Origin: Spirochaetota bacterium
GTDB lineage: Bacteria; Spirochaetota; UBA4802; JAFGJZ01
Direction: 5' to 3'
Assembly (NCBI GenBank): GCA_022704645.1
Contig: JAKJGA010000001.1
Location: forward strand, 1 to 40,982
Length of the DNA: 40,982 nt
Shown: in pieces, positions 7,079 to 31,414 of the stretch
How positions within the stretch are numbered: position 1 is the stretch's first letter
Layout: every line of letters begins with the position of its first letter
Translations under genes and position numbers: made by a program
Notes under the pieces: generated by a model
The model's database searches: none
What the model was told of the DNA's origin: nothing
What the model saw: the letters and a program-made list of their open reading frames with translations, nothing else

Positions 7079-8596
7079 ATGCTTGCCAAAACTCTATCCC
7101 TTGGAATTAACGGGATTACTTCACAGATTGTCGAAATCGAAATAGATCTTATTAAGGGTCTGCCGGGTTTTACAATAATCGGACTTCCTGATTCGGTCAT
7201 TAAGGAATCAAAGGATAGAATACGGAGCGCAATTGAAAATTCCGGTTATATATTCCCGCCGCATAATTATATCGTAAATCTTGCGCCCGCAACTTTCAGA
7301 AAACAGGGTTCGAATTATGATCTTGCAATAGCATTGGCTATTTTGAATATAACCGGTCAGATATCTCTGCCGGAAAAGCCTATTCCTGTTGTAGGTGAAG
7401 TTTCACTCGACGGTGATATTAGAGGCGTAAACGGTGTGATATCGATGGTCATAGCGCTTTACGATCTCGGTTACAAGGAAATAATCCTTCCATACTATAA
7501 CCGCATAGAAGCATCATCTCCGGGACTGATTGATATTTATGCTGTAAAAAATCTTCGTGAAGCAGTAGATGCAGTTAACGGTGAAAGTGAAAAATATGTT
7601 TATGAAGAAAAGGGTTTTGAAAGTGAAGAATGCCTTTATGATTTTAAACATGTCTATGGTCACGAAACCGTAAAACGTGCTATAGAAATAGCTGCTGCCG
7701 GAAATCATAATATATTAATGTACGGCCCTCCGGGAAGCGGAAAAACTATGATTGCAAAATCACTTCCATCAATACTGCCGAATCTTTCGAAACAGCAATC
7801 GATTGTAACAACAATGATTCATTCAGTTTCGGGAGTTCTGCCTTGCGGAATAGGTTTAAAAAAAATACCGCCGTTTAGAACACCTCACCATACTTCATCC
7901 GATGCTGCATTAGTCGGGGGCGGAAAGATCCCCGGAGCAGGTGAGATCTCATTGGCTCATAACGGCGTCCTTTTTCTGGATGAATTTTCGGAATTTAAAA
8001 ATAATGTTCTTCAATCATTGCGTCAGCCGCTTGAAGATTATGAAATTACTGTTTCCCGTGCTTACGGTTCAGTAACTTTCCCGGCGGATTTCATGCTTGT
8101 TGCATCGAGTAATCCTTGTCCGTGCGGATATCTTTTTGATGATAAAATAAAGTGCAAATGTCCGCCTCATATTATAAAAAACTATTTCAGAAAAATCGCA
8201 GGACCGATCCTTGACAGAATTGACATTGAGGTTTATGTTCCGCGTATTAATTACCGGGAACTTATGAGTGTTTCCGAATCTGAACATTCAGATTCAATTA
8301 AAGAAAGAGTCAGTTCAGCGCGGAGGATACAACGCAAAAGATTTGAATCCGATTCTCATGAATATAATTCACGGATGACAAGCTCTCAGACAAAAAAACA
8401 TTGTAAGCTCGATTCTGATTCTTCGGATTTTCTTGAAAAAGCATCAATTTCATTAAATCTTTCGACCCGCTCGCTATTTCGTGTCTTGAAAGTTGCAAGA
8501 ACAATCGCGGATCTTGATGAAAGCGGAAATATCGAAAAGAAGCATCTGGCAGAAGCTTTGTCGTTCAAAAATCTTCAGAAGTTTTACGATGTATAA
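7079..8596 (+). CDS. comM: YifB/ComM-family Mg-chelatase-like AAA+ ATPase
   Basis: SD GAGGAG lies upstream. Lon-like N-terminus (GLPGFTIIGLPDSVIKESKDRI), Walker A GPPGSGKTM, Walker B LFLDEFSEF, and a CPCG zinc-like insert. Confidence 0.9.
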   Translation: MLAKTLSLGINGITSQIVEIEIDLIKGLPGFTIIGLPDSVIKESKDRIRSAIENSGYIFPPHNYIVNLAPATFRKQGSNYDLAIALAILNITGQISLPEKPIPVVGEVSLDGDIRGVNGVISMVIALYDLGYKEIILPYYNRIEASSPGLIDIYAVKNLREAVDAVNGESEKYVYEEKGFESEECLYDFKHVYGHETVKRAIEIAAAGNHNILMYGPPGSGKTMIAKSLPSILPNLSKQQSIVTTMIHSVSGVLPCGIGLKKIPPFRTPHHTSSDAALVGGGKIPGAGEISLAHNGVLFLDEFSEFKNNVLQSLRQPLEDYEITVSRAYGSVTFPADFMLVASSNPCPCGYLFDDKIKCKCPPHIIKNYFRKIAGPILDRIDIEVYVPRINYRELMSVSESEHSDSIKERVSSARRIQRKRFESDSHEYNSRMTSSQTKKHCKLDSDSSDFLEKASISLNLSTRSLFRVLKVARTIADLDESGNIEKKHLAEALSFKNLQKFYDV

Positions 8597-8615
8597 AATA
8601 TTATTTTATACATCG
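8587..8615. terminator. 29-nt perfect palindrome between convergent comM and valS (likely bidirectional terminator)
   Basis: CGATGTATAAAATA (8587-8600) pairs with TATTTTATACATCG (8602-8615). It overlaps the comM stop codon (8594-8596). It is AT-rich and the flanking U-tracts are short. Confidence 0.4.
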
Positions 8616-8623
8616 TTTCCGGT

Positions 8624-11269
8624 TTATAGATTTTTAAGATTGTTGATGCTTTCGGTGATTTTATTTTTCAGTTCAACGAATTCATCACGTTTTGTTTTTT
8701 CTTTTGCTACGATATCTTCAGGTGCTGATGATATGAATTTATCATTTGAAAGTTTGCCTTCAACACGTGAAAGATCGGCCTCAATTTTAGATAATTCCTT
8801 GTTGAGTCTTTCAAGTTCTTTATCGACATCAATCAGTCCTTTAAGAGGAAGATAAATTTCGGCATCTTTAATAACTGCGGAGCAATCGCTTTTCTCTGGT
8901 TTATAAGATGCATCGACTTTAATGGACTCAATCTTTGCAAGTGATTTCAGCTGAGCAGATTCTTTCTCGACGATTTCTTTCACAAGCGGGCTTTCGGATT
9001 TGATTATCAGATCAGCCTTTCTATCAGGTGCGATATTCATCTCACCGCGGATATTTCTGATTTTATAAATGATTTCCTGAAAAAGCGCTGTTTCGTCGGC
9101 TTCTTTTATAAAATTAAAATTCGGATCAGTTTCCGGATATTTGGTTATTATCAGTAAATCCTGATTCTTGTCCTTAATCTTGCTCCATATTTCTTCCGTG
9201 ATAAAAGGCATGAACGGATGGAGAAGTTTAACCGATTCTTTTAGAACATGAAAAAGAACTTCTTTGGCGCAGTTTGCGGACTCTTCGCCGGAATGACCGT
9301 ATAGACGCGGTTTTGTAAGTTCAAGATACCAGTCGCAGAATTCATTCCAGAAGAATGAATAAACGGATTGTGCCGCATCATTGAATCTGTATTCGCTTAA
9401 TGCTTTAGAAATTTCATCTATTGCACAGTTGAGACGGAAAAGAATCCATTTGTCGAAACGTTCGAGTGAAGCATTATTGATTCCCTTTGTAGAAAAATTC
9501 TCGCCGAGATTCATGAGAACGAAACGTGTCGAATTCCATATTTTGTTCGAAAACGCTCTGTATCCTTCGATTCGTTTTTCCGACATGATTACATCGCGGC
9601 CCTGGGCTGCAAACATCGCAAGAGTAAATCTGAATGCGTCCGTACCGAATTTATCCATCATTATCAGCGGATCAATTACGTTTCCTCTTGATTTGCTCAT
9701 CTTGTGACCGTGTTCATCACGGACAAGAGCGTGGATATAGACATCCTTAAAAGGCACATCTCCCATGAATTTCAAGCCCATCATAATCATTCTGGCAACC
9801 CAGAAGAATATGATGTCAAAACCCGTAACCAGAACTGAAGTAGGGTAGTATTTCTTGAGCTCGGCTGTATCATCAGGCCATCCGAGAGTTGAAAACGGCC
9901 AGAGTCCGGAACTGAACCATGTATCGAGAACGTCTTCATCCTGTTTGATATTAGTTGATGAACATTTTGAGCATTTGCTTGGATCTTCCATTTCGACATT
10001 TATATGGCCGCAGTCTTCGCAGTAAAATGCCGGAATTCTGTGACCCCACCAAAGCTGACGTGAAATACACCAGTCGCGGATATTTCTCATCCATTCGAAA
10101 TAAGTTTTTTCCCAGTTTTTAGGAACGAATTTTATGCGTTCATCTTCAACAGCTTTTATTGCTTCATCTGCAAGCGGTTTGATTTTTACGAACCATTGAC
10201 TGCTTATATACGGTTCAATTATTGTCGAGCATCTGTAGCAATGTCCGACTGAATGAGGATTGTCTTCGATCTTTTCTACAAGACCGAGGTTTTCAAGGTC
10301 TTCAATTATTTTTTTGCGGGCGTCGAATCTGTCGAGACCGTTGTAAGATCCCCCGTTTTCATTTATGAAGCCCTTGGGCGTAAGAACATTGATTTCTTCA
10401 AGAGAATGACGTTTGCCCATTTCAAAATCGTTAGGATCGTGAGCAGGGGTTATTTTAACCATACCTGTTCCGAATTCCTTATCAACATAAGAATCAGCGA
10501 TAATAGGAATTTCGCGGTTGATTAACGGAAGGATCAGTTTTTTGCCGATAACGTTTTTATATCTTTCATCATCAGGATTTACTGCAACGGCTGTATCTCC
10601 AAGCATTGTTTCGGGTCTTGTTGTTGCAACTGTGATGTATCCGCTTCCGTCTGCATAGGGATATTTTAAATGATAAAGTTTTCCATTAAGGTCTTTATAT
10701 TCTGTTTCAATGTCAGAAAGGGCAGTTTCGCATCTAGGGCACCAGTTGATTATTCTTTCTCCGCGGTAGATGAGTCCTTCTTTGTACAGGGTGACAAAAA
10801 CTTTACGTACGGCTTTAGAGAGACCTTCATCGAGTGTAAATCTTTCTCTCTCCCAGTCAAGGCTCGCACCAAGCCGCTTAAGCTGGCTCTGTATCATTCC
10901 GCCGGATTCGGCTTTCCATTCCCATACTCTTTTTTCGAAAGCTTCGCGTCCCATATCGTGACGTGATTTTCCTTCTTTTGCAAGAAGTCTTTCAACGACG
11001 TTCTGAGTCGCTATACCGGCATGATCCATTCCCGGCATCCAGAGAACCGATTTGCCTTTCATGCGGTTCCATCTTGCTAAAATATCCTGAAGAGTATTAT
11101 TCAGGGCATGTCCCATATGAAGAGATCCCGTTACATTCGGCGGAGGAATGACTATGCAATATGCGTCTTTATTGTCCTTTTCATCGGCGTGGTAAAAATT
11201 TCCTTCATTCCATGCTTTAAGCCATTTTTCTTCTGTTTCTTTAGGTTCATAAGATGTCGATAACTGCAT
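8624..11269 (-). CDS. valS: Valine--tRNA ligase
   Basis: HIGH motif (PPPNVTGSLHMGHAL), KMSKS, and a C-terminal coiled coil. ATG 11269 with SD GAGGAA is preferred over the track TTG at 11293. Confidence 0.95.
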   Translation of the reverse strand: MQLSTSYEPKETEEKWLKAWNEGNFYHADEKDNKDAYCIVIPPPNVTGSLHMGHALNNTLQDILARWNRMKGKSVLWMPGMDHAGIATQNVVERLLAKEGKSRHDMGREAFEKRVWEWKAESGGMIQSQLKRLGASLDWERERFTLDEGLSKAVRKVFVTLYKEGLIYRGERIINWCPRCETALSDIETEYKDLNGKLYHLKYPYADGSGYITVATTRPETMLGDTAVAVNPDDERYKNVIGKKLILPLINREIPIIADSYVDKEFGTGMVKITPAHDPNDFEMGKRHSLEEINVLTPKGFINENGGSYNGLDRFDARKKIIEDLENLGLVEKIEDNPHSVGHCYRCSTIIEPYISSQWFVKIKPLADEAIKAVEDERIKFVPKNWEKTYFEWMRNIRDWCISRQLWWGHRIPAFYCEDCGHINVEMEDPSKCSKCSSTNIKQDEDVLDTWFSSGLWPFSTLGWPDDTAELKKYYPTSVLVTGFDIIFFWVARMIMMGLKFMGDVPFKDVYIHALVRDEHGHKMSKSRGNVIDPLIMMDKFGTDAFRFTLAMFAAQGRDVIMSEKRIEGYRAFSNKIWNSTRFVLMNLGENFSTKGINNASLERFDKWILFRLNCAIDEISKALSEYRFNDAAQSVYSFFWNEFCDWYLELTKPRLYGHSGEESANCAKEVLFHVLKESVKLLHPFMPFITEEIWSKIKDKNQDLLIITKYPETDPNFNFIKEADETALFQEIIYKIRNIRGEMNIAPDRKADLIIKSESPLVKEIVEKESAQLKSLAKIESIKVDASYKPEKSDCSAVIKDAEIYLPLKGLIDVDKELERLNKELSKIEADLSRVEGKLSNDKFISSAPEDIVAKEKTKRDEFVELKNKITESINNLKNL

Positions 11270-11339
11270 AATTTCCTCAATATGATATAGCAATCAATGA
11301 AAAAATTGAAATTTTGCAAGGTGCCGCTGTCAACAGTTT

Positions 11340-12320
11340 TTAGGGTTTATTTTTGGAGAAATATGATCCGAACAGGGATTTATCTATTTCAATAAGTCTT
11401 TGGGATATCTGGGATAATATAGAGAGATCGTAATTCTGAAAATGATAGTAATCATAAAGCCATAAGTATTTATTGATCAGACGGGGAAGCACATTTGATT
11501 TTTTGAGTTTCTCTCTTGTCATTGACTGATAAGATTTTTCAAGAGAAGCGATATCTTTTGTAATAAGTTCTGCGGTTTGCTGACTGATTTTTCCTTTTAC
11601 ATAAAAAATATCCATGAGAAATCCGTAAACAGGAACCCATTCCCTTATATCTTCATCAGGATGTGCTTCTTTGGAAGCGCTCGTGAGTTCATTTATCGGT
11701 TCACATTTGATGAGTTCGATGTCTATTGCTGACGGATTGATGAAAAATGCTTCTCTGAATAAAAGAAGAGATTTTGGAGCTTCTCCGGTTTTGAAATATG
11801 CGGCCGCTAGAATTGAAAGCAGTTTCGGATCGTTTTTAAAAAAGCTTTTTGCATATTCCAGTGTTTCTATGGTTTTCGGATAATCTTCAAGAGTCATGAA
11901 GCATACTGCAAGGTTCATAAGAAGGCTGAAGTTATCTGCAGGAGATTCCTGATTCGCAAATGCTGTTTTGTAATGTTCGCTTGAATTATAGTAAATATAT
12001 TTCTGAACAGCCTTGAATGCGCTTCCGCCGAAAAAATTCTTTTCTCTGGAATAATTTTCAAATTCGTTCCATTGACCCATTAAAAAATCAGCACTTTCCT
12101 TACCATTGTTCAGAGTGGCCAGACCCGGAACACGATTAAGCCAGTAACGCGATGTACGGTATCCCGCTTCAACTCCGGGATAATCTGGTTTGTTGTTCAT
12201 TATGGAATCAAAAACCGAGAATGCATTCATAAAATCGCCGTTCTCAAGAAAATCAAGACCGCGGTTCACGGATTCAACAGTTTTATCGTCCGAAAAAGTT
12301 AATTGATCGCCATTATTCAT
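11340..12320 (-). CDS. All-helical TPR-like protein, family not recognised
   Basis: 326-aa ORF. Its ATG shares one nucleotide with the stop of the upstream ATPase (TGATG at 12318-12322). Repeated amphipathic helix pairs resemble TPRs (FMNAFSVFDSIMNNKPDYP, LAVCFMTLEDYPKTIETLEYAKSFFKNDP, LAAAYFKTGEAPKSLLLFREAFFINP). Confidence 0.55.
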   Translation of the reverse strand: MNNGDQLTFSDDKTVESVNRGLDFLENGDFMNAFSVFDSIMNNKPDYPGVEAGYRTSRYWLNRVPGLATLNNGKESADFLMGQWNEFENYSREKNFFGGSAFKAVQKYIYYNSSEHYKTAFANQESPADNFSLLMNLAVCFMTLEDYPKTIETLEYAKSFFKNDPKLLSILAAAYFKTGEAPKSLLLFREAFFINPSAIDIELIKCEPINELTSASKEAHPDEDIREWVPVYGFLMDIFYVKGKISQQTAELITKDIASLEKSYQSMTREKLKKSNVLPRLINKYLWLYDYYHFQNYDLSILSQISQRLIEIDKSLFGSYFSKNKP

Positions 12321-14443
12321 CAGAATTTAACCGTTTGACCTATGCCGGAAAAGAGTTTATCATCGCATGTAAGTATTATGATCTGCCTTTCAGATGAAAA
12401 TTCCGACAGTATGCTGAAAAATTTATCAATTTTTCCCTTATCCAGATATGATGCGGGTTCGTCAATTATTAAAGGCAGTGAAATGTTCGAATTTTTCATT
12501 GCTCTTCCCATTGCAAGCTTGAAAGCCAGTAATGCGGAATATCGGAGAGATGTGTTTTTAATCGAGCTCATATCCCCTTTGATCAGCAAATCCGTATCTT
12601 GTTTATTTACGGAGCTCGAAGATGTTATTTCTGAGAAAATAGAATAAGTATCTTCGGAAATTTGTGTGAAGGCTCTGTTTTCAAATTCTGCTCTTGCCTG
12701 AGTCATATTTGTAAGTATGAATGAAGCGCTTCTGTGCGATGATTTTAAGCTTTTAAGTTTTTGTTCGTGAAAAAGTTTTCTCTGATTAAGTGATTCACTC
12801 TGGCTGCTTTCTTTTCCTCTGGCTTGAAGTTCTTCGTTCATTCTATTTAGAATTTCTATGTTCCGCTCAAGTTCATCTTTTAAAACTGCGATTTTTTCTG
12901 AGTTTCCTTCAATTTGTTTATTGATTGCAGTATTTTTTGAGTTTCTTTCACCGTTTATACTTTCGAGCGACTTCAGAAGAACTGATCTGTTTTTCTCAAG
13001 ATCAAGAATTTCCTGTCTGACGCTGTTGATTTTTTCTTCAGGAAACAAAGAATTTTCAATGTCATCTATTTCAGCTTCATTTTCAAGAAATTCAGAGTAC
13101 TCTTCGAAATATTGAAGAAGAAATTCAAACATGTCTTCGAAATGCTCTGATGATACCGGTATATCGCTTTTTGATAAAATCTCTTTGAGTTCTGCAACTC
13201 TTTGATTGAAGAGCTCCTCCAGTTTGTGGCTGATATCTTTTTTTAATCTGAACCGGATTATTGCAATAGAAAGTATGGATATAAATAATCCTGATGAAGG
13301 AATTAAAATTTTATGAAGAGTATTTATTTGTTCAAAATATTGATGAAAAAAATGGACGACTGCAGGAAACGCCAGCGACGCGCAGAAAAATGAAGCTGTT
13401 AGAGTATAGCATAAGTTTTTTAGAATTCCGATTGTTTTTAGTCGTTTAATCAACGAATCTTTCGCATCAATTGCATACTTGTAAGCAAGCTGAATGTTGT
13501 TAAGATTATTTCTCTGGGTTTCAGAAAGATTTATGAATTTCGAAAACCTGTCGTTAAGTTTCTGTTTTTTTGTTTCTATCGCAGAAACTTTGCTTTCCTC
13601 TGATGCAACAAAGTTCTTGAGTCCGTTGAGTTTGCTTTCTATTATGAAAACATTTGCAAGAGCCTCCTGAGATTTATGAAGAAAAGCTGTTCTGCTTTCA
13701 ATCTCAATCAGTTCTTTTTCAATGCTTTGATTGCGGTTTTTTATTTCTGATAATTCCTGTGATAATTTGTCAATCTTTGAAAAATGAACATCAAAAATCT
13801 GAAGCTCTTTTTTGATTTTCTGAATTTCATTTTCGTGATAAAAAATATTAGAAAGGAATGAGTTGTTTATTCTGGATGAAATATGTTCGGAATAAATGCT
13901 GTGTTTAAGTTTTGAGTGTATATCTATGAATTTATCTTCCGAAAATGATACAATTTTATTGATATTCTCGTAACTATAGTAAGGTGCAAGAAATGATTCG
14001 AAAGGAGAGGATATAAGTGATGCATCAATAAAAACCTGCGGTGTCAGTGTTGTAATCAGGCGGCAAATCATGGAGTTTGAAAGATTCTGCTGAGATTTAA
14101 TTTTGTCAGAAAACCTGGCGATATCGGTTTCACCGGCATAAACTTCTTTTCCGGTTCCGGATGAGACATCTGCGAAAGTTATTAGACTGCTTCCGTTCCG
14201 GATAATTGTCATTTTTTCATTTTCATCCGAAAGTGTCATGTTCACATACAGATTGCTCCACATGTCTTCAGATAAGATGCGGTTTTCTTTTTGTATTGCG
14301 AAAGCAGAATCTATCATCGCTTTTGCGAAAAGCGACTTTCCTGATTCATTTCCCCCGTAAATTATTGTAATTGAATTGTCAAAATTGATGATCTTATTTT
14401 CAAGAACACCGGTTTTGGCAGCTATGCATTGAGTAAAGCGCAA
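12320..14443 (-). CDS. SMC/Rad50-like ATPase of the YhaN/SbcE type with a central transmembrane hairpin
   Basis: Walker A GGNESGKS, Walker B/D-loop LPLIIDEPASYLD, and long heptad-rich arms. Two hydrophobic helices sit at mid-protein (nt ~13253-13429). The preferred start is TTG 14443, preceded by GGAGGA with a 6-nt spacer. It gives MRFTQCIAAKTGVLEN, which aligns in length with my recollection of YhaN-type N-termini. The track start TTG 14485 is the alternative. Confidence 0.75.
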   Translation of the reverse strand: MRFTQCIAAKTGVLENKIINFDNSITIIYGGNESGKSLFAKAMIDSAFAIQKENRILSEDMWSNLYVNMTLSDENEKMTIIRNGSSLITFADVSSGTGKEVYAGETDIARFSDKIKSQQNLSNSMICRLITTLTPQVFIDASLISSPFESFLAPYYSYENINKIVSFSEDKFIDIHSKLKHSIYSEHISSRINNSFLSNIFYHENEIQKIKKELQIFDVHFSKIDKLSQELSEIKNRNQSIEKELIEIESRTAFLHKSQEALANVFIIESKLNGLKNFVASEESKVSAIETKKQKLNDRFSKFINLSETQRNNLNNIQLAYKYAIDAKDSLIKRLKTIGILKNLCYTLTASFFCASLAFPAVVHFFHQYFEQINTLHKILIPSSGLFISILSIAIIRFRLKKDISHKLEELFNQRVAELKEILSKSDIPVSSEHFEDMFEFLLQYFEEYSEFLENEAEIDDIENSLFPEEKINSVRQEILDLEKNRSVLLKSLESINGERNSKNTAINKQIEGNSEKIAVLKDELERNIEILNRMNEELQARGKESSQSESLNQRKLFHEQKLKSLKSSHRSASFILTNMTQARAEFENRAFTQISEDTYSIFSEITSSSSVNKQDTDLLIKGDMSSIKNTSLRYSALLAFKLAMGRAMKNSNISLPLIIDEPASYLDKGKIDKFFSILSEFSSERQIIILTCDDKLFSGIGQTVKF

Positions 14444-15480
14444 ATCCAGTCCTCCGAAATTATTGATCCGTTTTTGATAATGCAAAAAACCATCCGCGAC
14501 AATTCTTTAATATCCACATCCTCCGGTATTTGCTTGGTATTCAGCAAGTCGAAAAAATCTCTCCACATTCCGTTTGTTTCAATCTCTGATGATAATTGCT
14601 TTAATGTCGGAAAAGAATTGTCGTCTATTTTGACTGACTTATATTTTTTTTCCAGATTGAAATTATCTATTGGATAATTTCTCATTCCGTCAAATCTAAT
14701 ATAAAGACGTGTTTCGGAATTTTTTGATTCATCGACCATGGCTTCTATATCATTTAAATTACTATTATCGCAATCAATGGTCAGCGATACGAATTTTGTA
14801 CTTTTTAGAGGTAATCTTTTTATTTCATAAATGGAATCGTCTGAAGTCACAATGTTTAACGAATACTTTGCGGAATTTTCTTCTGCGGAAAAAGCTTCAG
14901 CGTGACCCGGGTATGCAGCTATTATTTTACCTGATACTTTAAAAATTTTGGTTGTGTTGATTCCGCCGAGTGCGTAAAAATCAAGAGGAAGCTTTTTGAA
15001 AAAGGTCTTCATTTCAATTTCATTTTCAGCATATTCTTCAATGTTTAAATTGAAAAGACCTATATGAAAACCGTCTTCAGAGGTTTTATCCGTAAGAAAA
15101 ATATCATCTTTTCTGGAAGACCCGTAAAAATAAATTTTTTCATTATCCTTTTCTAATAGAAACGGTTCATTATCTTTTGTGAAAATTTTATCTGCGGATT
15201 CAATATCTAGATTCAATTCCTCCATCATTCTTCTTTCTTCATCAGTTAGGAGAATGATAATTTTTGCATCAATTCCGTTTCTATCTGCAAAAATAATGTT
15301 TAATTTATCTGTTATTTCAGGGGAAATATTAGTAAAAATATTTCCTGGGATTAGGATTGCATCCGCATCAGCTGAATCTTTAATTGCGTTTTTGAGCGTG
15401 TCTAGGCGGTCTTCGTCCGATATTGGAAGAAAATCATCTGTTAAACCAAGAGCAAAATCAGAAAGAAGAACAAAACGCAT
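14422..15480 (-). CDS. SbcD/Mre11/YhaO-fold protein with degenerate metallophosphoesterase motifs
   Basis: Motif spacing is SbcD-like but the ligands are replaced. LLSDFALG (DxH to DxA), LIPGNIF (GD to GN), no GNHD, YALGGIN (GHxH to GGxN). Overlaps the downstream ATPase gene. Confidence 0.6.
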   Translation of the reverse strand: MRFVLLSDFALGLTDDFLPISDEDRLDTLKNAIKDSADADAILIPGNIFTNISPEITDKLNIIFADRNGIDAKIIILLTDEERRMMEELNLDIESADKIFTKDNEPFLLEKDNEKIYFYGSSRKDDIFLTDKTSEDGFHIGLFNLNIEEYAENEIEMKTFFKKLPLDFYALGGINTTKIFKVSGKIIAAYPGHAEAFSAEENSAKYSLNIVTSDDSIYEIKRLPLKSTKFVSLTIDCDNSNLNDIEAMVDESKNSETRLYIRFDGMRNYPIDNFNLEKKYKSVKIDDNSFPTLKQLSSEIETNGMWRDFFDLLNTKQIPEDVDIKELSRMVFCIIKNGSIISEDWICALLNA

Positions 15481-15667
15481 ATTTTTACCGTAAAAAATGT
15501 CTTATATAATTATCGGCATCATTATCTTCAAACTTGATTGTGTTGTCATCATCAAAATGATCAAAAACATCTGAAGTTATTTTATTATTATACAGTACGC
15601 TTGGACGGTAAAATGGTTGACAATCGTTTGAAAGAACTAATCAATAATGTTATAAAAGAAAGGTTAA

Positions 15668-16705
15668 ATGATGAATTTATTGAATTTAAGATTTTTAATT
15701 GTCTGTTCTCTTATGCCGGCAATACTATTTCTGTCATGTAAAAAGGATAATCAATCCAAACAAGAGAATATCCCGGTTGTTGAAAAGAGTATTTTGAAGA
15801 TTTCTCCTGCACCTGAAGGTTCTCCTGTTTCCAAATATGGAAAACTTCAGATTAAAGGAGTCAATCTTTGTGATGCGAACGGAAATATCGTTCAATTAAA
15901 AGGAATGAGTCTATATTGGAGTCAATGGTCAAACGGATTTTGGAATAAGGATGTTGTTAATACTCTTGCGGATGATTGGAAATGCACGGTAATACGTGCC
16001 GCAATGGGAGTTGTCAAGGGCGGTTATCTTGAAAATTCCGGAGAAATTGATAAGCTTAAAATAGTTCTGGATGCGGCAATTGAAAAAGGCATTTATGTAA
16101 TCATTGACTGGCATGATCATGATGCGATAAGCCATACGGAAGAAGCTAAGAAATTTTTCGCTGAAATGGCTGCCGGATACGGGCAGTATCCTAATATTAT
16201 TTTTGAAATATTTAATGAACCTATAAATGATCAATGGCTGGATGTAAGAAAATATTCCGAATCTGTCATTGAAACGATACGCGCCAACGGATCAGACAAT
16301 GTCATAATTGTCGGAACTACATCATGGTCGCAGGATGTGGATATTGCTGCGGAGTTTCCAGTTAAAAACGGAAAGAATGTTGCATATGCCCTTCATTTCT
16401 ATGCGGCGACTCACAAAAAAACATTTAGAGACAGAGCTGAAGCTGCTATCTCAAAAGGTCTTCCAATTTTTGTTTCTGAATGGGGTACTTGTGAAAATAA
16501 CGGCGACGGTTTTGTTGACATTGAAGAAAGTCTGATATGGCTTGATTTTATGGATAAACACAAGCTTAGCTGGTGCAACTGGTCATTGTTTAATAAAATG
16601 GAATCAGCATCCGCTTTGAAGGCTAATGCAAAGCCTTCAGGAAAGTGGAATAATTCGCTTCTTACTGAATCCGGAAGATTTGTAAAAAAGAAAATATCTG
16701 AATAA
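15668..16705 (+). CDS. GH5 endo-beta-1,4-glucanase (cellulase family) lipoprotein
   Basis: Signal peptide with spirochaete-type lipobox (ILFLSC). Has DWHD, acid/base Glu in IFEIFNEP, nucleophile Glu in VSEWGT, and HFYA. Confidence 0.88.
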   Translation: MMNLLNLRFLIVCSLMPAILFLSCKKDNQSKQENIPVVEKSILKISPAPEGSPVSKYGKLQIKGVNLCDANGNIVQLKGMSLYWSQWSNGFWNKDVVNTLADDWKCTVIRAAMGVVKGGYLENSGEIDKLKIVLDAAIEKGIYVIIDWHDHDAISHTEEAKKFFAEMAAGYGQYPNIIFEIFNEPINDQWLDVRKYSESVIETIRANGSDNVIIVGTTSWSQDVDIAAEFPVKNGKNVAYALHFYAATHKKTFRDRAEAAISKGLPIFVSEWGTCENNGDGFVDIEESLIWLDFMDKHKLSWCNWSLFNKMESASALKANAKPSGKWNNSLLTESGRFVKKKISE

Positions 16706-18336: not shown

Positions 18337-20385
18337 TCATTTGCGTATTCCCTCTGTTAGTCCTTCCGTAAACTGTCTGTGAAATTTCAGAAATAGAAGT
18401 AATGGTATTATTATAGAAATAAAGCCTGCCGCGAGTACTGCTCCTGTGTCGTTTATCAGCAGAATTCTTACAGGAAGAGTCATAAGCTTTTCATCGCGCA
18501 TAATTATTACCGGATTAAGGAAATCATTCCAGACAATTCGGAACTGAATTATTGCAAGCGCCGCAAGCGCTGGTCTTGCGAGAGGAAGAATGATGTGCCA
18601 CCAAATTCTTAAATGTCCGGCTCCGTCCATACGGGCAGCTTCAATTACTGCTAACGGAATTCTCATGAAATACTGCCGTAAAAGAAATACGCCGAATCCG
18701 CTGACAGCACCTGGAAGAATCAGTCCGAACCAGCTGTTGAGCAGATGCAGATTCTTCGCGACTTTGTACATCGGTATCATAAGTGCGTTAGCCGGGATCA
18801 TCATGGTTGAAAGGGCAAGAATCAGGAAAAATTTCTTATGTTTGAACTCCATAAAGACAAGTGCGTATGCGTATAGAGATACTACAATTGCTGTTAAAAA
18901 AATTGTTCCTGAAGATACTATTATCGAATTAAACAGGGCTCGGCCGACATCAAAATGCCAGAATGCCGCGAGATAAGAATCCCTCGTATAGCTTTCAATT
19001 GATTTCCATATAGGCTGTTGAAAAATCGCAGGAGGCGATTGTATTACTTCGAGAGGCGGACGAAGGGATGCGTCAAGCAGCCATAAAAGCGGAAAAATAA
19101 ACAGAAGAGCGAGAATGCAAAGTAAAAATGCACTGAGAAGCTTCCCCGGCCTTATTTTTCTTTTAGCTCTAAATACTTTTTCCCGGACTCTTTGAACTCT
19201 TTCGATGAAAGGTTTTTCGATGAATTGAAAAGATAGTGCTGCCGCTCCGTAAGAAATTACTATCATCAATAATGAAGCACCCGCCCATAGTCTCCAGTCT
19301 TTGATTGCCATGTAGTTCATATACTCGGGAAGAATATAGAAAGAAATCAATGCTATTATTACATAGTGCCAGATATAAAGGCCGAAAGAAATTTTAGCTG
19401 TAAATCTCATAAAGCGCGAATCAAATAATTTTCCGGTAAATTTTGAATTTACAAGCGAAACGGCGAGTATTGAAATCAATGCTGTCAGATATGGAAAGTA
19501 GTAAGGCTGCTTTTGAATGCTGTGAGTGAATTCTTCTTCGGTACGTACATAGCATAGGAGTCCTATTATGGCCGCGGAGCTAACAATTGAAGCAATGTCG
19601 AAAATGTTTTTATCAGCGATTCTGTCTCTGAGAGTTTTATTCTTTATAAAATAGGCGCATATTCCGCCGGCTAGTATTCCGAATGTGAAATGACCGAAAA
19701 AGCCTATTGGGTTGTAATTCGGCATCCACCATTTTGATCCGCCTGTGACTCCGAATTCCCATCCTCGTTTGACATTATCAGGAGTAAGATACATGTGTAT
19801 AAGCTGATTTATACCGATTATCAGGAGTAGGGTGAATACCCAATAAATGATTCCTTTTTTAAATGATCTTTTTTCTCCAGTAAAGCGGAATAGGCCGAAC
19901 ATGAAAACCGGCATTAGTAAATATGAAAAAACTTCGAAACTGATAGACCACAAAGGTGAATTTACAAACGACGGAAAAAGTGTTGTGTAATGAAATCCTG
20001 CCGTGAAAGTTAATCCTGTTATAAGTCTTCTGGCAAAATAATCCATATCAGGAATAAAAAGCAGGGCAAGAATAGTACTTACTGCGAATGAAGCGTAATA
20101 ACCCGGTACTATGCGTGCCGCTCTGCGCTTTGCGTAGTTTGAAATATCCGGAAAATCAAGGTTTGAAATATAATTTTTCCAGAATGGATAAGAAAGGAGA
20201 AATCCGCTGAGTACGAAAAAAAAGCTTACACCGGTGTTTCCCATCAGAAAGAAGAGCTGTATATGCTGAAGAATGAAATGCTGCGAGTATATGTCCAGTC
20301 TCTGCGCGACATGATGAAATATTACTAATAGACATGCTGCAGCGCGCAGTCCGTCAAGTCCCGGGAATCTGTTTTCAATCTTCAT
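18337..20385 (-). CDS. Fusion protein: acyltransferase-3 (OafA/NolL-like) domain plus MalG-type carbohydrate ABC permease domain
   Basis: AT3 motifs at the N-terminus: LDGLRAAACLLVIFHHV, GVSFFFVLSGFLL, RRAARIVPGYY, WSISFEVFSYLLMP, FIEKPF. A basic linker RVREKVFRAKRKIRPGK (nt ~19140-19200) follows. Then a complete permease: FIFPLLWLLDASL and the EAA loop VIEAARMDGAGHLRIWWHIILPLARPAL. There is no in-frame stop or plausible internal start at the junction. Confidence 0.8.
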   Translation of the reverse strand: MKIENRFPGLDGLRAAACLLVIFHHVAQRLDIYSQHFILQHIQLFFLMGNTGVSFFFVLSGFLLSYPFWKNYISNLDFPDISNYAKRRAARIVPGYYASFAVSTILALLFIPDMDYFARRLITGLTFTAGFHYTTLFPSFVNSPLWSISFEVFSYLLMPVFMFGLFRFTGEKRSFKKGIIYWVFTLLLIIGINQLIHMYLTPDNVKRGWEFGVTGGSKWWMPNYNPIGFFGHFTFGILAGGICAYFIKNKTLRDRIADKNIFDIASIVSSAAIIGLLCYVRTEEEFTHSIQKQPYYFPYLTALISILAVSLVNSKFTGKLFDSRFMRFTAKISFGLYIWHYVIIALISFYILPEYMNYMAIKDWRLWAGASLLMIVISYGAAALSFQFIEKPFIERVQRVREKVFRAKRKIRPGKLLSAFLLCILALLFIFPLLWLLDASLRPPLEVIQSPPAIFQQPIWKSIESYTRDSYLAAFWHFDVGRALFNSIIVSSGTIFLTAIVVSLYAYALVFMEFKHKKFFLILALSTMMIPANALMIPMYKVAKNLHLLNSWFGLILPGAVSGFGVFLLRQYFMRIPLAVIEAARMDGAGHLRIWWHIILPLARPALAALAIIQFRIVWNDFLNPVIIMRDEKLMTLPVRILLINDTGAVLAAGFISIIIPLLLFLKFHRQFTEGLTEGIRK

Positions 20386-21274
20386 GTTTTTCACCAAGTC
20401 CGAGAAATTTAAGCTGAAGCAGACTCACTGCCAGAATCAGAAAAAAAGCAATCCATCCTGCGGCGCTTGCAGCCCCGATTTCAAGATCCCATTGAAATGC
20501 TCTCAGGTAGATATAGAGAATAATCCCGGTGACATTTTCATAAATATTATATTGAAAAAGACCGAGAATGAGGTCAAAAACCAGAAGCGATGATACGGCA
20601 GACGTTATCGTCATGAATATCAAGGCGGGTTTCATGAGCGGCAAAGTGATGTTTTTTAGTATGCTGAGTCTTCCGGCTCCGTCAATTCTGGCTGCTTCAT
20701 AAGGCGACTGATTAAGTGACCTGAGGTTTGCTGAGAAATATATAATCTGAAATCCGATACATTGCCAGAAAGAAACAAATACAAGCAGCGGAAAAGCAAG
20801 AGTTTTATCATCAAGCCAGTTCATATTCGGATTTCCTCCGAAGAAGCCGATGATAATATTTGCGATACATTGTTCTCCGGTGAATAACAGCCTGAAAAGA
20901 ATTCCTGCTACAAGAGTATTGATGAGAGAAGGTATGAAAAAGGCTGCTTTGAGTAAACTCTGCGTTCTTTTATACGGCAGGCTTTCTATCCATAAAGAAA
21001 TCAAAAACGCAGCCGGAATCTGAATTGCAACCGAAACAGCTGCGAATTTAAATGAAACATAAACAGAATTCCAGAAATAAGTGTCCTTGAGAATATTCTT
21101 GAAATTTTGAAATCCGATGTTTTTTCCAGGATTAATTCCCTGGGCATCGGTAAGACTGGTTAAAAAACCGATTCCGAATACTATAATGGTGAATATGAAC
21201 ATCAGAATCAGAAAGGGCGCCATAAAGCGTAGAGCCTGCCGTTCATTTTTATCTGTAAGCTTTATCATCTGCAA
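20375..21274 (-). CDS. MalF-type carbohydrate ABC transporter permease
   Basis: Six predicted TMs and the EAA loop YEAARIDGAGRLSILKNITLPLMKPAL. Overlaps the downstream fusion gene by 11 nt. Confidence 0.85.
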   Translation of the reverse strand: MQMIKLTDKNERQALRFMAPFLILMFIFTIIVFGIGFLTSLTDAQGINPGKNIGFQNFKNILKDTYFWNSVYVSFKFAAVSVAIQIPAAFLISLWIESLPYKRTQSLLKAAFFIPSLINTLVAGILFRLLFTGEQCIANIIIGFFGGNPNMNWLDDKTLAFPLLVFVSFWQCIGFQIIYFSANLRSLNQSPYEAARIDGAGRLSILKNITLPLMKPALIFMTITSAVSSLLVFDLILGLFQYNIYENVTGIILYIYLRAFQWDLEIGAASAAGWIAFFLILAVSLLQLKFLGLGEKHED

Positions 21275-26038: not shown

Positions 26039-28126
26039 ATGCCGCTTTCGAAACTTAGAAATATCGGTATTGCCGCGCATATTGACGCGGGAAAAACAAC
26101 TACTACTGAGCGAATTCTTTTTTACACAGGTGTAAACAGAAAACTCGGAGAAGTTCATGACGGAGCGGCATCTACCGACTTCATGAAGCAGGAACAGGAA
26201 AGAGGTATTACGATCGCTTCTGCCGCAATTACAACAAAGTGGAAAGATCATCAGATTAACATCATCGATACCCCGGGTCACGTTGACTTTACTGTCGAAG
26301 TTGAACGTTCAATGCGTGTAATTGACGGACTTGTAGGTCTTTTCTGTGCTGTGGGCGGTGTTGAGCCTCAGTCTGAAACAGTTTGGAATCAGGCTGACCG
26401 TTATAAAGTACCAAGAATAGCGCTTGTAAATAAAATGGACCGTGTAGGTTCTGATTTTATGGAAGTTGTCGGTCAGTTGAATAAATATCTTGATGCCAAT
26501 GCAGTTCCTTTTCAGCTTCCTATCGGAGCTGAAGATAATTTTCAGGGGGTAATAGACCTTATGAAAATGAAGGCTGTTTATTATCCGGCTGAATTGAAAA
26601 GAGAAGAAAAAGATATTCCTGAAGACATGAAAGCTGAAGCCGAAGCTGCAAGAAAGAACATGATCGAAAAAATTGCAGATTTCAATGACGCAATCATGGA
26701 AAAGTATCTTGCAGAAGAAGAAATCGGATATGATGAACTTAAAAAAGCTGCGAGAACTGTTACTATAAATCAGAATATTACTCCCGTTTTCTGCGCATCT
26801 TCATATAAAAACAAAGGTGTAGAAGAATATCTTGATGCTGTTCTTGATTATCTTCCTTCTCCTGTTGATATTGGTTCTGTGCACGGACAGGATATTAATG
26901 ATCCTTCAAAATCTCATACAAGACATCCTGTTGAGTCCGATCCTTTTTGTGCGCTTGCGTTCAAGCTTATAAATGACCCTTATGTTGGTCAGCAGACATT
27001 TATTCGAATTTATTCCGGAAAACTTGAAAGCGGTATAACTGTACTTAATTCAACAAAAGGAAAGAAAGAGAGAATAGGACGAATTCTTAGAATTCATGCG
27101 AAAGACAGAGAAGAACTTACATCTGCAGGTGCCGGCGAAATCGTTGCACTTATCGGTATGAAAGACACTAAAACAGGCGATACTCTTTGTGATCAGGATA
27201 ATCCTGTAATTCTTGAAAAAATTCATATTCCGCCTGCGGTTATTGAAATGAAGATTACTCCGCAGAGTAAGAAAGATGAAGAGAAGCTTGGTTTTGCTCT
27301 TAACAGACTTTCAACTGAAGACCCTTCATTTAAGACTCGTGTTGATGAAGAATCAAATGAAACGGTTATCGCGGGTATGGGAGAGCTTCACCTTGAGATC
27401 ATGGTTGACCGTCTGAAAGAAGAGTATGGTCTGATAGTTGATGTCGGAGAACCGGCTGTAGCATTCAGAGAAACAATGAAGACTCCTGTTGAAAATTCTT
27501 ATAAATTTGCTAAGCAGACCGGTGGTAAAGGTATGTTCGCAAACTGTACCATCCGTTTTGAGCCTAATCCGGGTAAGGGTTTCGAGTTTGTTGATATGAT
27601 TAAGGGAGGAGCAATTCCTCAGGAATATATTCCTTCAGTTAGAAAAGGTCTTGAAGCAACTATGGATGAAGGTATTCTTGCGGGCTTCCAGGTTCTTGAC
27701 GTTAAAGCTATTCTGATAGACGGTAGTTTCCATGCAGTCGATTCATCGGATATGGCGTTCAGACTTTGTGCTTCAATGTGTTTTAAACAGGCTTTTCTAA
27801 AAGCTGATCCGATTCTTCTTGAGCCGGTAATGAAAGTTGAAGTAAATACACCGGATGATTATATCGGTGATGTAATCGGAGATCTTAACAGAAGAAGAGG
27901 TAAGATCGGAGACATGAGAAGATTCAGAAAAGGATCTCAGAAAGTTGACGCTAAAGCACCTCTTGTTGAAATGTTCGGTTATGCAACTACACTTAGATCT
28001 CTTTCAAGCGGAAGAGCAAACTATTCAATGGAATTTCATGCATATGAACAGGTTCCAAAAGACGTTCAGGAAAAAGTTGTAAAAGCAGCTGCTGAAAAAC
28101 GTGCAAAAGGCAACAAAGCCGATTAA
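26039..28126 (+). CDS. fusA: Elongation factor G
   Basis: SD GAGGGA lies upstream. G1 [10 protein letters not shown]3 DTPGH, G4 NKMD, and EF-G domains IV/V conserved ([15 protein letters not shown]). Confidence 0.95.
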
Positions 28127-28132
28127 TATAAT

Positions 28133-28165
28133 AAAACACCGCCTTACAGGCGGTGTTTTATTATA
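28133..28165 (+). terminator. Rho-independent terminator of fusA
   Basis: AAAACACCGCC (28133-28143) pairs with GGCGGTGTTTT (28149-28159) across loop TTACA, followed by an A/T-rich tail. Confidence 0.85.
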
Positions 28166-28382
28166 TTTCTTTCTTTAATAAATTTAATTAAAATCCTTTC
28201 TCTTTGTTTTAACTTCTTGTGTTATTTATAGAAAAATTTAAAAGTATGTCATAGATGTAAAAATATGAGTGATGTAAAGCCATATTTAAAAAAAAAATGA
28301 AAAAACTTAATAAAACGATGATAAATACCCATTTATTTTCCGTATATAATATTATAAATTGTATTGAAAGGGGACAACTAAA

Positions 28383-28904
28383 TTGAAAAGCTATGAAAAA
28401 CGTTTTGATCTGCTTTATCGAAATTACTTCAGCGATATTGTCGGATTCATCTGCAAGAAAATTCATAATTCACAAACAGCTGAAGAAATTGCTCAGGAAA
28501 TATTTTTAAATCTTTTCGCAAAGAAGAAAGAATTGCCTCCGGAATCATCGATTTCTAAAAGATATTTATTTGTGTGCGCAAAAAATAAACTGATTGATTT
28601 CTACCGTCAGAGAAAACCGAGTATTATTTCTGAACCGATAGAGAATATTGAATACATGGAGATGGAGAAGCTGAATGACTTTAATCTTGAGAATATGATT
28701 ATCCGTGAAGAAATAATTTCTACATTCTACTCTACGCTATCAACATTTAATCAATCAAAAAGAAAAGCCTATCTTTCGTGTATAGTAAAAGAAAAAAATA
28801 CCAAATACACGCAAAAATATTATCGTTTCCGCAGAAAAGTTCTTAATGAAATAAATGAAATAATGAGAACAAAACTTTCAGAATATGAAGACATGGTGAA
28901 ATGA
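28383..28904 (+). CDS. ECF-like sigma-70 family factor with an atypical region 4
   Basis: TTG start after AAGGGGA. Region 2 patterns: AEEIAQEIFLNLF and YLFVCAKNKLIDFYRQRKP. The C-terminal part (KRKAYLSCIVKEKNTKYTQKYYRFRRKVL) is short and lacks a clear HTH. Confidence 0.55.
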   Translation: MKSYEKRFDLLYRNYFSDIVGFICKKIHNSQTAEEIAQEIFLNLFAKKKELPPESSISKRYLFVCAKNKLIDFYRQRKPSIISEPIENIEYMEMEKLNDFNLENMIIREEIISTFYSTLSTFNQSKRKAYLSCIVKEKNTKYTQKYYRFRRKVLNEINEIMRTKLSEYEDMVK

Positions 28905-29951
28905 CTATTTTCTGATATTTATATTTTGCGTCGGATATGCAAACTCTATTTTTTTGGATTTGAAATATTTCATAATTTCTAAATTTATTTGTTCATTTAT
29001 CTCCATAAAGTATGCGTAATCCGGAGAAGAAATAAAATATTCTGTTTCAAAGATAATTGAATAATCTGATAATTCTTTTAAATTTGAACGTGAGTATTCT
29101 GTGTCTTTATGAGACTCGATTATTTTTTTAATTTCTATCGGAATTTTTTCAAGCTTGCTGATTTCAGTATCGTAACAGACTGAATGTGAGAGGAGTACTC
29201 TTCTTTTTTTCATTTTTGTATAATTTCTTACGGTCTTATTTGTCAGCTGATTATTTGAGAGAATAATTTCTTCACCGTTTAAGCTCAATATTCTTGTGCT
29301 TCTTATACCTATTTTAATTATTGTACCTGCGACGTCATCGAATCTTATAAAATCATTTTGCACGAAAGGTTTATCAACATATATAGTAAAGGAAGAAAAT
29401 AAATCAGAAAGAATATTTTGAAAAGCAAATGCAAAAGCAATACTGGTTATTCCAAGACTCGTAACAAGTGTTGAAACTTTGAAACCAAGATTTGAAAGAA
29501 TTATTATTAATCCTGCTGAATAAATTGCTGTCTTGGAAAGAACAATAATAATATTAAAAAAAGTTTCTGAGGATTTATATTTTTTCCCTTGGTGTATTTT
29601 GGAAAAAATAAGATTTAGGCTTTTTCCTGCTATTGAGGCTAATTCCAGAAAAACTGAAGCAATAACAAAAGTATTTATAATCATTTCTTCGGTTTTTGAT
29701 AAAGTAATCAAATTAGAGGCAATCTCAAATGATATCGCAAAAATAAGCATGTAGTGTGTTTCTGCAATAAATGAAGTGATTCGTCTTATTTTTTTATTGT
29801 TTTTAGATGCTTTTCTAAGACGCATCCTCAAAGTGCTTCTAATTGCCGAAAGAATAATGAAGATGAGAGTAGATGCTGTAAAAAAGACTACTGCTTTTGA
29901 AAAATTATTTTCTTCAATCAGAAAGTTTTTAATTGTTTCAAATGTTTCCAA
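28905..29951 (-). CDS. MscS-family mechanosensitive channel
   Basis: TM3 plus beta-domain signature: LGITSIAFAFAFQNILSDLFSSFTIYVDKPFVQNDFIRFDDVAGTIIKIGIRSTRILSLNGEEIILSNNQL (cf. E. coli MscS). TTG start with SD AGGAGA, which overlaps the upstream TAG stop. Confidence 0.85.
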   Translation of the reverse strand: METFETIKNFLIEENNFSKAVVFFTASTLIFIILSAIRSTLRMRLRKASKNNKKIRRITSFIAETHYMLIFAISFEIASNLITLSKTEEMIINTFVIASVFLELASIAGKSLNLIFSKIHQGKKYKSSETFFNIIIVLSKTAIYSAGLIIILSNLGFKVSTLVTSLGITSIAFAFAFQNILSDLFSSFTIYVDKPFVQNDFIRFDDVAGTIIKIGIRSTRILSLNGEEIILSNNQLTNKTVRNYTKMKKRRVLLSHSVCYDTEISKLEKIPIEIKKIIESHKDTEYSRSNLKELSDYSIIFETEYFISSPDYAYFMEINEQINLEIMKYFKSKKIEFAYPTQNINIRK

Positions 29952-29961
29952 AAACGTTCTC

Positions 29962-30741
29962 CTATGCAGGGAAAATATAATTTAGTGAAGAGCCGGAATT
30001 ACGGACTTTTTTAAAATCAATTTTATATAATTTGGAAGCTATGTCACTTTTCAGAAATTTATCGGATGATCCTGAAAAAAAAATGCTGAAATCCTTCATT
30101 GCTGTAATAATATCAGAAAATCTTATTGCGGTATTTATGTCGTGAACAGAAGCAATAACAGTTTTTCCTCTGTCGGCTTCGGCTCTTAAAATTGAATATA
30201 TGTTATATGCATGACTGATATCAAGATGAGATACCGGTTCATCCATAATTATAATTTCAGAATTTTTTGCGATACACCCGGCAAGCAGTGTAAGCTGAAG
30301 CTCTCCCGCTGATAAATGATTTAAAAGTTTTTTGGATAATTTTTCAATTCGGCATTTTTTGAGAGCGATATCTTTATATTCATAATCATCATTTGAAAAT
30401 GCAAAGCCTTTTTTTAATGGAAAGCGGTTAAGTAAAACGAACTCATCAACTGTTATCGGTTTTGCCGAAAAATCAGATGAAAATACCGAAGAAATAATTG
30501 ATGATTTTTCCTTTACTTCAAGCGTATCGATGCAAGTATTTCCTATAAGGACTTCACCCTTTAGAGGTCTTTGAATTCCGCATATAATTTTAAGCAATGT
30601 TGTTTTCCCTGATCCGTTGGGACCGATCAGGGATGTAAGTTTGCCTTTTGGGAAAACTGCTGACAATGATTCAAAAACATTTTTGTCTGAATATGAAAAA
30701 AAAATATTTTTTAGAACTATGTCATTTTTATTATTTAGCAT
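29962..30741 (-). CDS. FepC/BtuD-like ABC ATPase without a cognate permease and lacking the Q-loop glutamine
   Basis: Walker A GPNGSGKT, signature variant LSAGELQ, Walker B IIIMDEPVSHLD, H-loop SVHD. No Gln occurs between GIQRPL and the signature motif, where the Q-loop should be. Confidence 0.8.
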   Translation of the reverse strand: MLNNKNDIVLKNIFFSYSDKNVFESLSAVFPKGKLTSLIGPNGSGKTTLLKIICGIQRPLKGEVLIGNTCIDTLEVKEKSSIISSVFSSDFSAKPITVDEFVLLNRFPLKKGFAFSNDDYEYKDIALKKCRIEKLSKKLLNHLSAGELQLTLLAGCIAKNSEIIIMDEPVSHLDISHAYNIYSILRAEADRGKTVIASVHDINTAIRFSDIITAMKDFSIFFSGSSDKFLKSDIASKLYKIDFKKVRNSGSSLNYIFPA

Positions 30742-31360: not shown

Positions 31361-31414
31361 ATTTCCTCCGTTTTGTTTATTATCAATAATTATTGAAAAA
31401 AATCAAGTAAAGAG

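Follow-up and report, generated by a model that had tools for sequence, protein, structure and literature searches.

A Spirochaetota operon for a YhaN/YhaO-type Mre11-Rad50-like complex, predicted to be membrane-anchored and, in one lineage, to be nuclease-dead

What is the role of a bacterial Mre11-Rad50-like gene pair in which the nuclease partner has lost its metal ligands, and does such a locus belong to the chromosomal core or to accessory, perhaps defensive, DNA? The question is raised by three minus-strand genes at positions 11340-15480 of contig JAKJGA010000001.1 from a Spirochaetota bacterium (assembly GCA_022704645.1); the window, i.e. the whole stretch of DNA analysed here, is 40,982 nucleotides (nt) long. 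The genes encode a Mre11-like protein, a Rad50-like ATPase and a tetratricopeptide repeat (TPR)-like protein. Taken together, the evidence makes it fairly probable that they form a Spirochaetota-specific operon for a membrane-anchored Mre11-Rad50-like complex of the YhaN/YhaO type with a family-specific third subunit, which in this lineage would serve as a nuclease-dead, ATP-binding tether or scaffold. Within this combined statement the identity of the components is near-certain; the mechanism is much weaker. An earlier reading made from the letters of the DNA (the sequence-only reading) had called three open reading frames (ORFs) here, and all are present:

14422-15480, minus strand: Mre11-like gene, 352 amino acids (aa), predicted Mre11/SbcD fold
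12320-14443, minus strand: ATPase gene, 707 aa, YhaN/AAA_27-type and Rad50-like, with a TTG start at 14443
11340-12320, minus strand: TPR-like gene, 326 aa, all-alpha in its model

The overlap between the first two genes had been given as 22-64 nt depending on the choice of start. The longest ATPase ORF (12320-14485) is 721 aa when counted from the first TTG. Homologs begin at residue 15 of this ORF, and a GGAGGA Shine-Dalgarno sequence lies at 14455-14450, six bases before the TTG at 14443. Because these two observations fix the start at 14443, the ATPase is 707 aa long and the overlap is 22 nt; the 64-nt overlap needs the upstream start, which has no support. At the second junction the sequence TGATG spans 12322-12318 on the minus strand, as had been noted, and the ATPase stop and the TPR-like start share one base. 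The peptides quoted in the sequence-only reading (LLSDFALG, LIPGNIF, YALGGIN, GGNESGKS, LPLIIDEPASYLD and both hydrophobic stretches) were all found.

Searched singly, the 352-aa protein gives a weak NCBIfam match to Mre11_Halo (2.6e-8), no match in Pfam and nothing but noise in the Protein Data Bank (PDB), where the best hit is the P22 tailspike (E=1.4). A family profile built from 21 members matches the Mre11 proteins of T. maritima, M. jannaschii and P. furiosus and E. coli SbcD in the PDB at 6e-13 to 1e-11, and the alignment pairs the family motifs DlH, GD, PGExE and GHxH with DWH, GD, PGNHD and GHIH, respectively. An AlphaFold2 model of the window protein (predicted local distance difference test, pLDDT, 79) was compared with the PDB by Foldseek; the 49 best matches are all Mre11/SbcD (E ~6e-12, template modelling (TM) score 0.5-0.6) and include full-length chains bearing the Rad50-binding helices. 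The phosphoesterase and capping domains can be recognized, as can C-terminal helices like those with which Mre11 proteins bind the Rad50 coiled coil. In the family alignment, five of the seven canonical metal-ligand positions hold non-ligand residues (H10A, D47N, H144N, H173G and H175N), leaving D8, A10, N47, N144, G173 and N175 in the window protein. Motif III is LTDEE in this protein, PGExE in the family and PGNHD in canonical enzymes, and its catalytic His is missing throughout the family. The proposal of a Mre11/SbcD fold stripped of its metal ligands is thereby confirmed at the level of profile alignment and predicted structure: instead of a full set of Mre11 ligands, the structure-profile alignment shows A, N, N, G and N.

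The ATPase has a bipartite ATP-binding cassette (ABC) head, with its halves at the two termini and two long arms between them. The N-terminal part of the head matches Pfam AAA_27 with 24.4 bits over aa 26-103 (gathering score 22), homologs carry the precomputed annotation PF13514, and the protein matches NCBIfam Rad50 at 5.7e-8 and Rad50 heads in the PDB at 6e-4, the C-terminal head aligning to Rad50. When the C-terminal head was aligned by hhalign to five distant AAA_27 proteins, a set headed by a member of a cluster to which JGI gives the name 'uncharacterized protein YhaN' (COG4717), the probability was 99.6% and E was 5e-25. The YhaN/SbcE-type assignment made at the outset is thus well founded. 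The principal elements of the protein are the following.

14333-14356, minus strand: Walker A, GGNESGKS, aa 30-37, intact and kept in the clade to which the window belongs
12455-12478, minus strand: Walker B, LPLIIDEP, aa 656-663, placed by alignment to P. furiosus Rad50 and the family table
13346-13414, minus strand: hydrophobic helix 1, LCYTLTASFFCASLAFPAVVHFF, Kyte-Doolittle 19-mer 1.72
13250-13309, minus strand: hydrophobic helix 2, ILIPSSGLFISILSIAIIRF, Kyte-Doolittle 19-mer 2.02
13100-13129, minus strand: FEFLLQYFEE, aa 439-448, ~40 residues past the second hydrophobic helix

The ABC signature is degenerate family-wide. LSGG is not present; the position aligned to SGGE of P. furiosus Rad50 reads NTSLRY, and hhalign shows the YhaN-like LSxGTxDQ replaced, with a four-residue gap. 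A Cys at the H-loop position (LTCDD) was considered as a further catalytic loss of the window clade, a reading that was dropped because distant YhaN-like relatives carry the same Cys (FTC in the hhalign alignment). The arms (aa 190-335 and 400-600) hold zero and two Pro, respectively, and are nearly devoid of both Pro and Gly. No 10-mer of the ATPase is better conserved than FEFLLQYFEE, whose mean column conservation across 90 sequences is 0.86; Walker A, Walker B and the H-loop-position block reach 0.66-0.68 in the same sequences. Near-variants of it occur in the remainder of the spirochaete family, and the distant YhaN-like relatives do not have it.

A CxxC zinc hook was sought in the ATPase and none was found, there being five Cys in the whole protein. 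Two hydrophobic helices take the place of the hook, as had been proposed, and they lie close to the ~13253-13429 first given for them. Of the 90 orthologs, 87 have a pair of hydrophobic 19-mers at the centre, with a loop of median length 11 aa between them. The segments are ~20 residues long with mean Kyte-Doolittle values of 1.7-3.0, and hydrophobicity is conserved where sequence is not. Lys and Arg number 4.7 and 3.4 per 15 aa in the flanks and 1.4 in the loop; the N-terminal flank is rich in both, and the Pro of helix 1 is invariant in a five-sequence alignment. Such a pattern is that expected of an in-out-in transmembrane hairpin whose arms both lie in the cytoplasm. Distant AAA_27 relatives of 850-1076 aa are likewise strongly hydrophobic at mid-length, and a hydrophobic centre is, as these comparisons indicate, a general feature of YhaN-type ATPases, already published for SbcE. 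In B. subtilis SbcE (YhaN), which interacts with SbcF, the central domain is hydrophobic and insoluble, has a conserved Pro and lacks CxxC (PMC2811018).

The same segment might instead form a buried, soluble dimerization hinge. The SbcE paper never terms the central domain transmembrane and reports foci of SbcE fused to yellow fluorescent protein on the nucleoid as well as at the poles (PMC2811018), and the topology proposed here was drawn from hydropathy and charge bias. We nevertheless regard a hinge as unlikely and favour a membrane hairpin, because over segments of this length and hydropathy only hydrophobicity is conserved, and because the K/R-rich flanks and the short, nearly uncharged loop recur in 87/90 sequences.

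In the third protein only two TPRs can be recognized. Its Pfam TPR matches all fall under the gathering score, and a PDB profile search matches only aa ~115-200, which correspond to two consensus TPRs. The AlphaFold2 model, built from a 65-sequence alignment, is compact and all-alpha, with 17 helices (pLDDT 92). Foldseek, which placed the 352-aa protein among Mre11/SbcD structures, returned for this model generic TPR solenoids from the PDB (E>=1.8e-3, TM-score <=0.30) and no specific structural relative; the remainder of the protein is a family-specific alpha-helical structure without a close fold match. No HD or OB domain was matched in Pfam, NCBIfam or structure searches. A word-index search with the TPR-like alignment found 268 proteins, and the 120 listed are 324-341 aa long. 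The N-terminal peptide GQLTFSDD (12291-12320, minus strand, the first 10 codons) is nearly invariant and modelled as disordered (pLDDT <50), and it looks like a short docking motif.

The three genes travel together. A scan of one genome per species gave 46 loci (L004-L049), and a recognizable ATPase relative is present in 44 of them (L004-L047); L048 is a weak, contig-truncated match, and L049, from a Clostridia metagenome-assembled genome (MAG), was rejected as a family member since its match is a chance one of 41 residues. Of these 44 loci, 42 are labelled as Spirochaetota or a lineage within it, many as Leptospirales, and two as 'uncultured bacterium' only. The order Mre11-like, ATPase, TPR-like on one strand is found in all 44 wherever the contig reaches, the exceptions in scoring being genes lost at contig ends or unscored in L005. 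In that locus (L005:8001-10000) there is no scorable ATPase ORF and tblastn matched residues 1-585 only, a gap that may be due to masked bases or a frameshift.

A profile search with the TPR-like protein added 69 metagenome loci, about 60 of them with the trio in the same order; in every metagenome locus with sufficient flank the other two genes are found upstream, L098, L102, L110 and the distant L114 being the exceptions. Across the two scans the order repeats in about 100 independent loci, which is beyond what chance would give. The gap between the ATPase and TPR-like genes is -11 to +14 nt in 92/96 loci, and the Mre11-like gene lies upstream of the ATPase gene and overlaps it by 4-22 nt wherever the flank is present. 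The tight downstream coupling claimed for the TPR-like gene, which sits where Bacillus has yhaM, is therefore borne out. A profile search that ran exhaustively through 1.84 billion representative proteins found 114 ATPase relatives at E<=1e-10, 88 of them at E<=1e-30, full-length relatives being ~700 aa, and every family member with an organism name is a Spirochaetota MAG.

Stand-alone TPR-like homologs occur at L098:1738-2730, L102:1526-2521, L110:4466-5440 and L114:4920-5930. Their identity is 38-40% (26% in L114), and neither a Mre11-like nor an ATPase gene precedes them. Among the genes around them are a GGDEF protein and icd/purA and, in the GC-rich-looking L114, an 894-aa protein with a C-terminal GreA/GreB domain.

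Catalytic residues were followed through about 90 partly redundant loci, six ligand positions (from motifs I, II, IV and V) being scored in the Mre11-like protein. Four states were distinguished; the counts 19 and 10 take in loci with a score for just one of the two proteins.

41 loci: six ligand positions kept, Walker A/B intact
17 loci: variation at the first His of GHxH or at the His of motif IV, Walker A/B intact
19 loci: loss of Walker A/B (ATPases 656-682 aa long), Mre11-like motifs largely retained
10 loci: nuclease ligands lost (the window clade and, separately, L084)

Most orthologs retain DxH, GD, H and GHxH, and ligand loss is, on these alignments, a derived trait of the small clade of the window (plus L084) and not of the family. 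The protein at L084:1999-3021, which reads DHNKGN at the six scored positions, represents an independent second loss outside the window clade. The Walker-less clade (L045-L047, L086-L090, L092, L095, L099, L100, L104, L107-L109 and L112) retains the TPR-like gene, the hairpin and the motif, here YEFLLQYF, and its Mre11-like partner has for the most part kept its ligands. None of the four groups has lost the hairpin, the TPR-like gene or the FEFLLQYFEE block.

Mean pairwise identity is 0.56 for the TPR-like protein, 0.35 for the Mre11-like protein and 0.27 for the ATPase. Within the window clade, the ratio of nonsynonymous to synonymous substitution (dN/dS) is 0.11 for the Mre11-like gene, at a synonymous divergence (dS) of ~0.64, 0.04-0.06 for the ATPase and 0.01-0.03 for the TPR-like gene; valS, encoded next to the trio, gives 0.03-0.04. 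The TPR-like protein is thus the best conserved and most constrained of the three, with a dN/dS like that of valS. Reading frames are intact in all members of the clade, and the ligand-less Mre11-like protein is being maintained rather than decaying, because its dN/dS is low.

The closest known system is SbcE/SbcF (YhaN/YhaO) of B. subtilis, as had been suggested, the likeness being drawn through AAA_27 and YhaN-named relatives and the published description of SbcE (PMC2811018). Common to both are an AAA_27-type SMC/Rad50-like ATPase, a hook-less hydrophobic centre with a conserved Pro, and an SbcD/Mre11-like gene directly upstream within a three-gene arrangement. The third gene, however, is YhaM, an HD-domain 3'-5' exonuclease, in Bacillus and a TPR-like protein here; the ABC signature motif is absent in the trio; the partner in the window lineage has no metal site; and the juxtamembrane FEFLLQYFEE is confined to the spirochaete family. 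The two ATPases also differ in length, B. subtilis SbcE having 963 aa against 707 aa here. As judged from these comparisons, what is new with respect to SbcE/SbcF is the third subunit, the lost ABC signature and the repeated loss of catalytic sites. A literature search on YhaN-type or Rad50/Mre11 proteins with membrane features found nothing past the 2009 SbcE paper. With Mre11-Rad50/SbcCD the trio shares the Mre11 fold, capping domain and C-terminal helices, and a bipartite ABC head with Walker A and B linked by antiparallel arms, but the zinc hook is replaced by the hydrophobic hairpin, LSGG is gone, motif III is PGExE rather than GNHD and the window protein has lost five ligand positions. 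By sequence, then, the trio lacks the hook, signature and ligands that define SbcCD.

How might such a complex work? The apex of the ATPase would sit in the cytoplasmic membrane, with the heads and a Mre11-like dimer in the cytoplasm, and the TPR-like subunit would dock via a short conserved peptide, the candidates being FEFLLQYFEE or its own N-terminus, GQLTFSDD. The ancestor was probably SbcEF-like and acted on DNA near the membrane. Since the di-metal site appears to be gone from the window lineage, the complex there should be unable to cut DNA, and ancestral SbcEF-like end processing probably survives only in the ligand-keeping orthologs. The function that selection has kept would most likely be a non-nucleolytic, ATP-binding one, tethering or scaffolding DNA or another client at the membrane; the metal site lost here and the ABC signature missing family-wide are the grounds for this proposal.

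Several points weigh against this picture. The predicted membrane insertion is drawn from hydropathy and charge bias. The coupling of the genes could reflect co-expression and not a complex. The TPR-like protein may have a function of its own, as the solo homologs make possible. Finally, one metal might in principle still be held by the Asn, Asp and Glu residues that occupy the former ligand positions.

A further possibility, which we hold only tentatively, is that the trio is an undescribed membrane-bound SMC-like machine whose structural role would depend on the TPR-like subunit and FEFLLQYFEE, not on nuclease or ATPase chemistry. A non-catalytic core function is argued for by the existence of separate clades without the nuclease site or without the Walker motifs in which the architecture is under purifying selection. 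If so, its job might be, for example, to tether the nucleoid or another client to the spirochaete inner membrane.

It is improbable, by contrast, that the trio acts in this organism as an active nuclease, processing double-strand breaks or hairpins in the manner of SbcEF/SbcCD. The Mre11 fold and the Rad50-like head are clear, most orthologs keep DxH, GD, H and GHxH, and SbcE works in the repair of double-strand breaks and in competence in B. subtilis (PMC2811018). Against this stand the replacement of five of the seven canonical ligands by A, N, N, G and N in the window protein, the family-wide absence of the motif III catalytic His and the missing ABC signature.

The preferred reading, a nuclease-dead tether or scaffold, also has to be set against that of a defense system, since the sequence-only reading had seen in the trio a loose resemblance to Lamassu (LmuABC) and Wadjet (JetABCD), i.e. 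to SMC-type anti-phage or anti-plasmid modules. We consider such a role very unlikely. The likeness consists of an SMC-like ATPase paired with two partner proteins and of a weak PADLOC match of the ATPase to LmuB (1.8e-7). The match to JetC, however, is at E=0.2, the Mre11-like and TPR-like proteins have no match in PADLOC, PHROGs gives a weak SbcC match only, and equivalents of LmuA, LmuC, JetA, JetB and JetD were not found in the trio.

Nor do composition and surroundings suggest defense. Accessory DNA had been proposed from single-line G+C counts of 15/60 at 13261-13320 and 30/60 in valS at 10021-10080, counts that are correct but unrepresentative, the low one falling in the Phe/Ile/Leu-rich hairpin. 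The G+C content is 34.6% in the trio and 36.4% in the window, and that at third codon positions is 0.29-0.34 in the trio and 0.22-0.38 in neighbouring genes; this ordinary composition leaves the accessory-DNA reading unsupported. The elements flanking the trio are as follows.

8624-11293, minus strand: valS, 46 nt downstream of the TPR-like gene, a conserved neighbour
15521-15549, minus strand: candidate sigma-70-like promoter, ATGACA-17-GATAAT, upstream of the Mre11-like gene, 10/12 consensus matches

The promoter candidate is a pattern match only, being the best minus-strand site in 8400-16000 by consensus scan. No convincing terminator was found in the interval between the TPR-like gene and valS, and valS is possibly co-transcribed with the trio. 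In 18 loci the gene follows the trio, L001 and L002 carrying one and the same protein, and the other neighbours across loci include rpe, a PASTA protein, rimM, dnaK/dnaJ, response regulators and an OmpA-family protein; hisB, a GGDEF protein, fusA and flgK are among the other genes of the window. No integrases, transposases or known defense genes were seen near the trio, either in the window or among the neighbours across loci. For each trio protein, pairwise identity rises and falls with that of valS (Spearman 0.92-0.94 over 15-16 loci, the pairs not being independent). In place of the patchy distribution and defense-island context for which a survey of neighbourhoods had been suggested, there is housekeeping synteny and co-divergence with valS. 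The trio is a vertically inherited chromosomal core locus of uncultured Spirochaetota, and the TPR-like gene is linked to it rather than unlinked elsewhere.

Equally hard to credit is that the operon as a whole, or just its ligand-less gene, persists in this lineage as a functionless remnant in decay: this gene has lost its catalytic residues and its dN/dS is the highest of the three in close-relative comparisons, but that value is still 0.11 (0.01-0.06 for the other two genes), frames are intact clade-wide, the fold model is confident enough for a full-length Mre11 match, and the gene coupling and overlaps are retained.

Some other features of the window may be recorded. The plus-strand gene at 7079-8596, convergent with valS, encodes a Mg-chelatase/ChlI-family AAA+ protein, with an architecture that we take to be that of ComM/YifB, and is shared only with the closest relatives (L004-L006). 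The minus-strand ORF at 18337-20397 (686 aa) combines Acyl_transf_3 (aa 12-384) with a BPD_transp_1 ABC permease domain (aa 504-668) and would be an unusual fusion, unless two genes have been merged into one ORF. The plus-strand ORF at 260-2785 (841 aa) has no Pfam match at E<=1e-6. The lowest G+C of the window, 0.28-0.30 and thus below that of the trio, is found at 28000-31500, where the genes encode an extracytoplasmic function (ECF)-type sigma factor fragment, an MscS-family channel, an ABC ATPase and two ORFs without a Pfam match.

YhaN/YhaO (SbcE/SbcF) is the least understood bacterial relative of Mre11-Rad50. The spirochaete family makes explicit a membrane-hairpin-like centre that is merely hinted at in the SbcE paper, and it supplies a further subunit under strong constraint. 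Since the locus belongs to the chromosomal core, one candidate is removed from the list of defense systems. The family also offers natural 'mutants', one clade without the nuclease metal site and another without the Walker motifs, as constructs that can be compared with one another.

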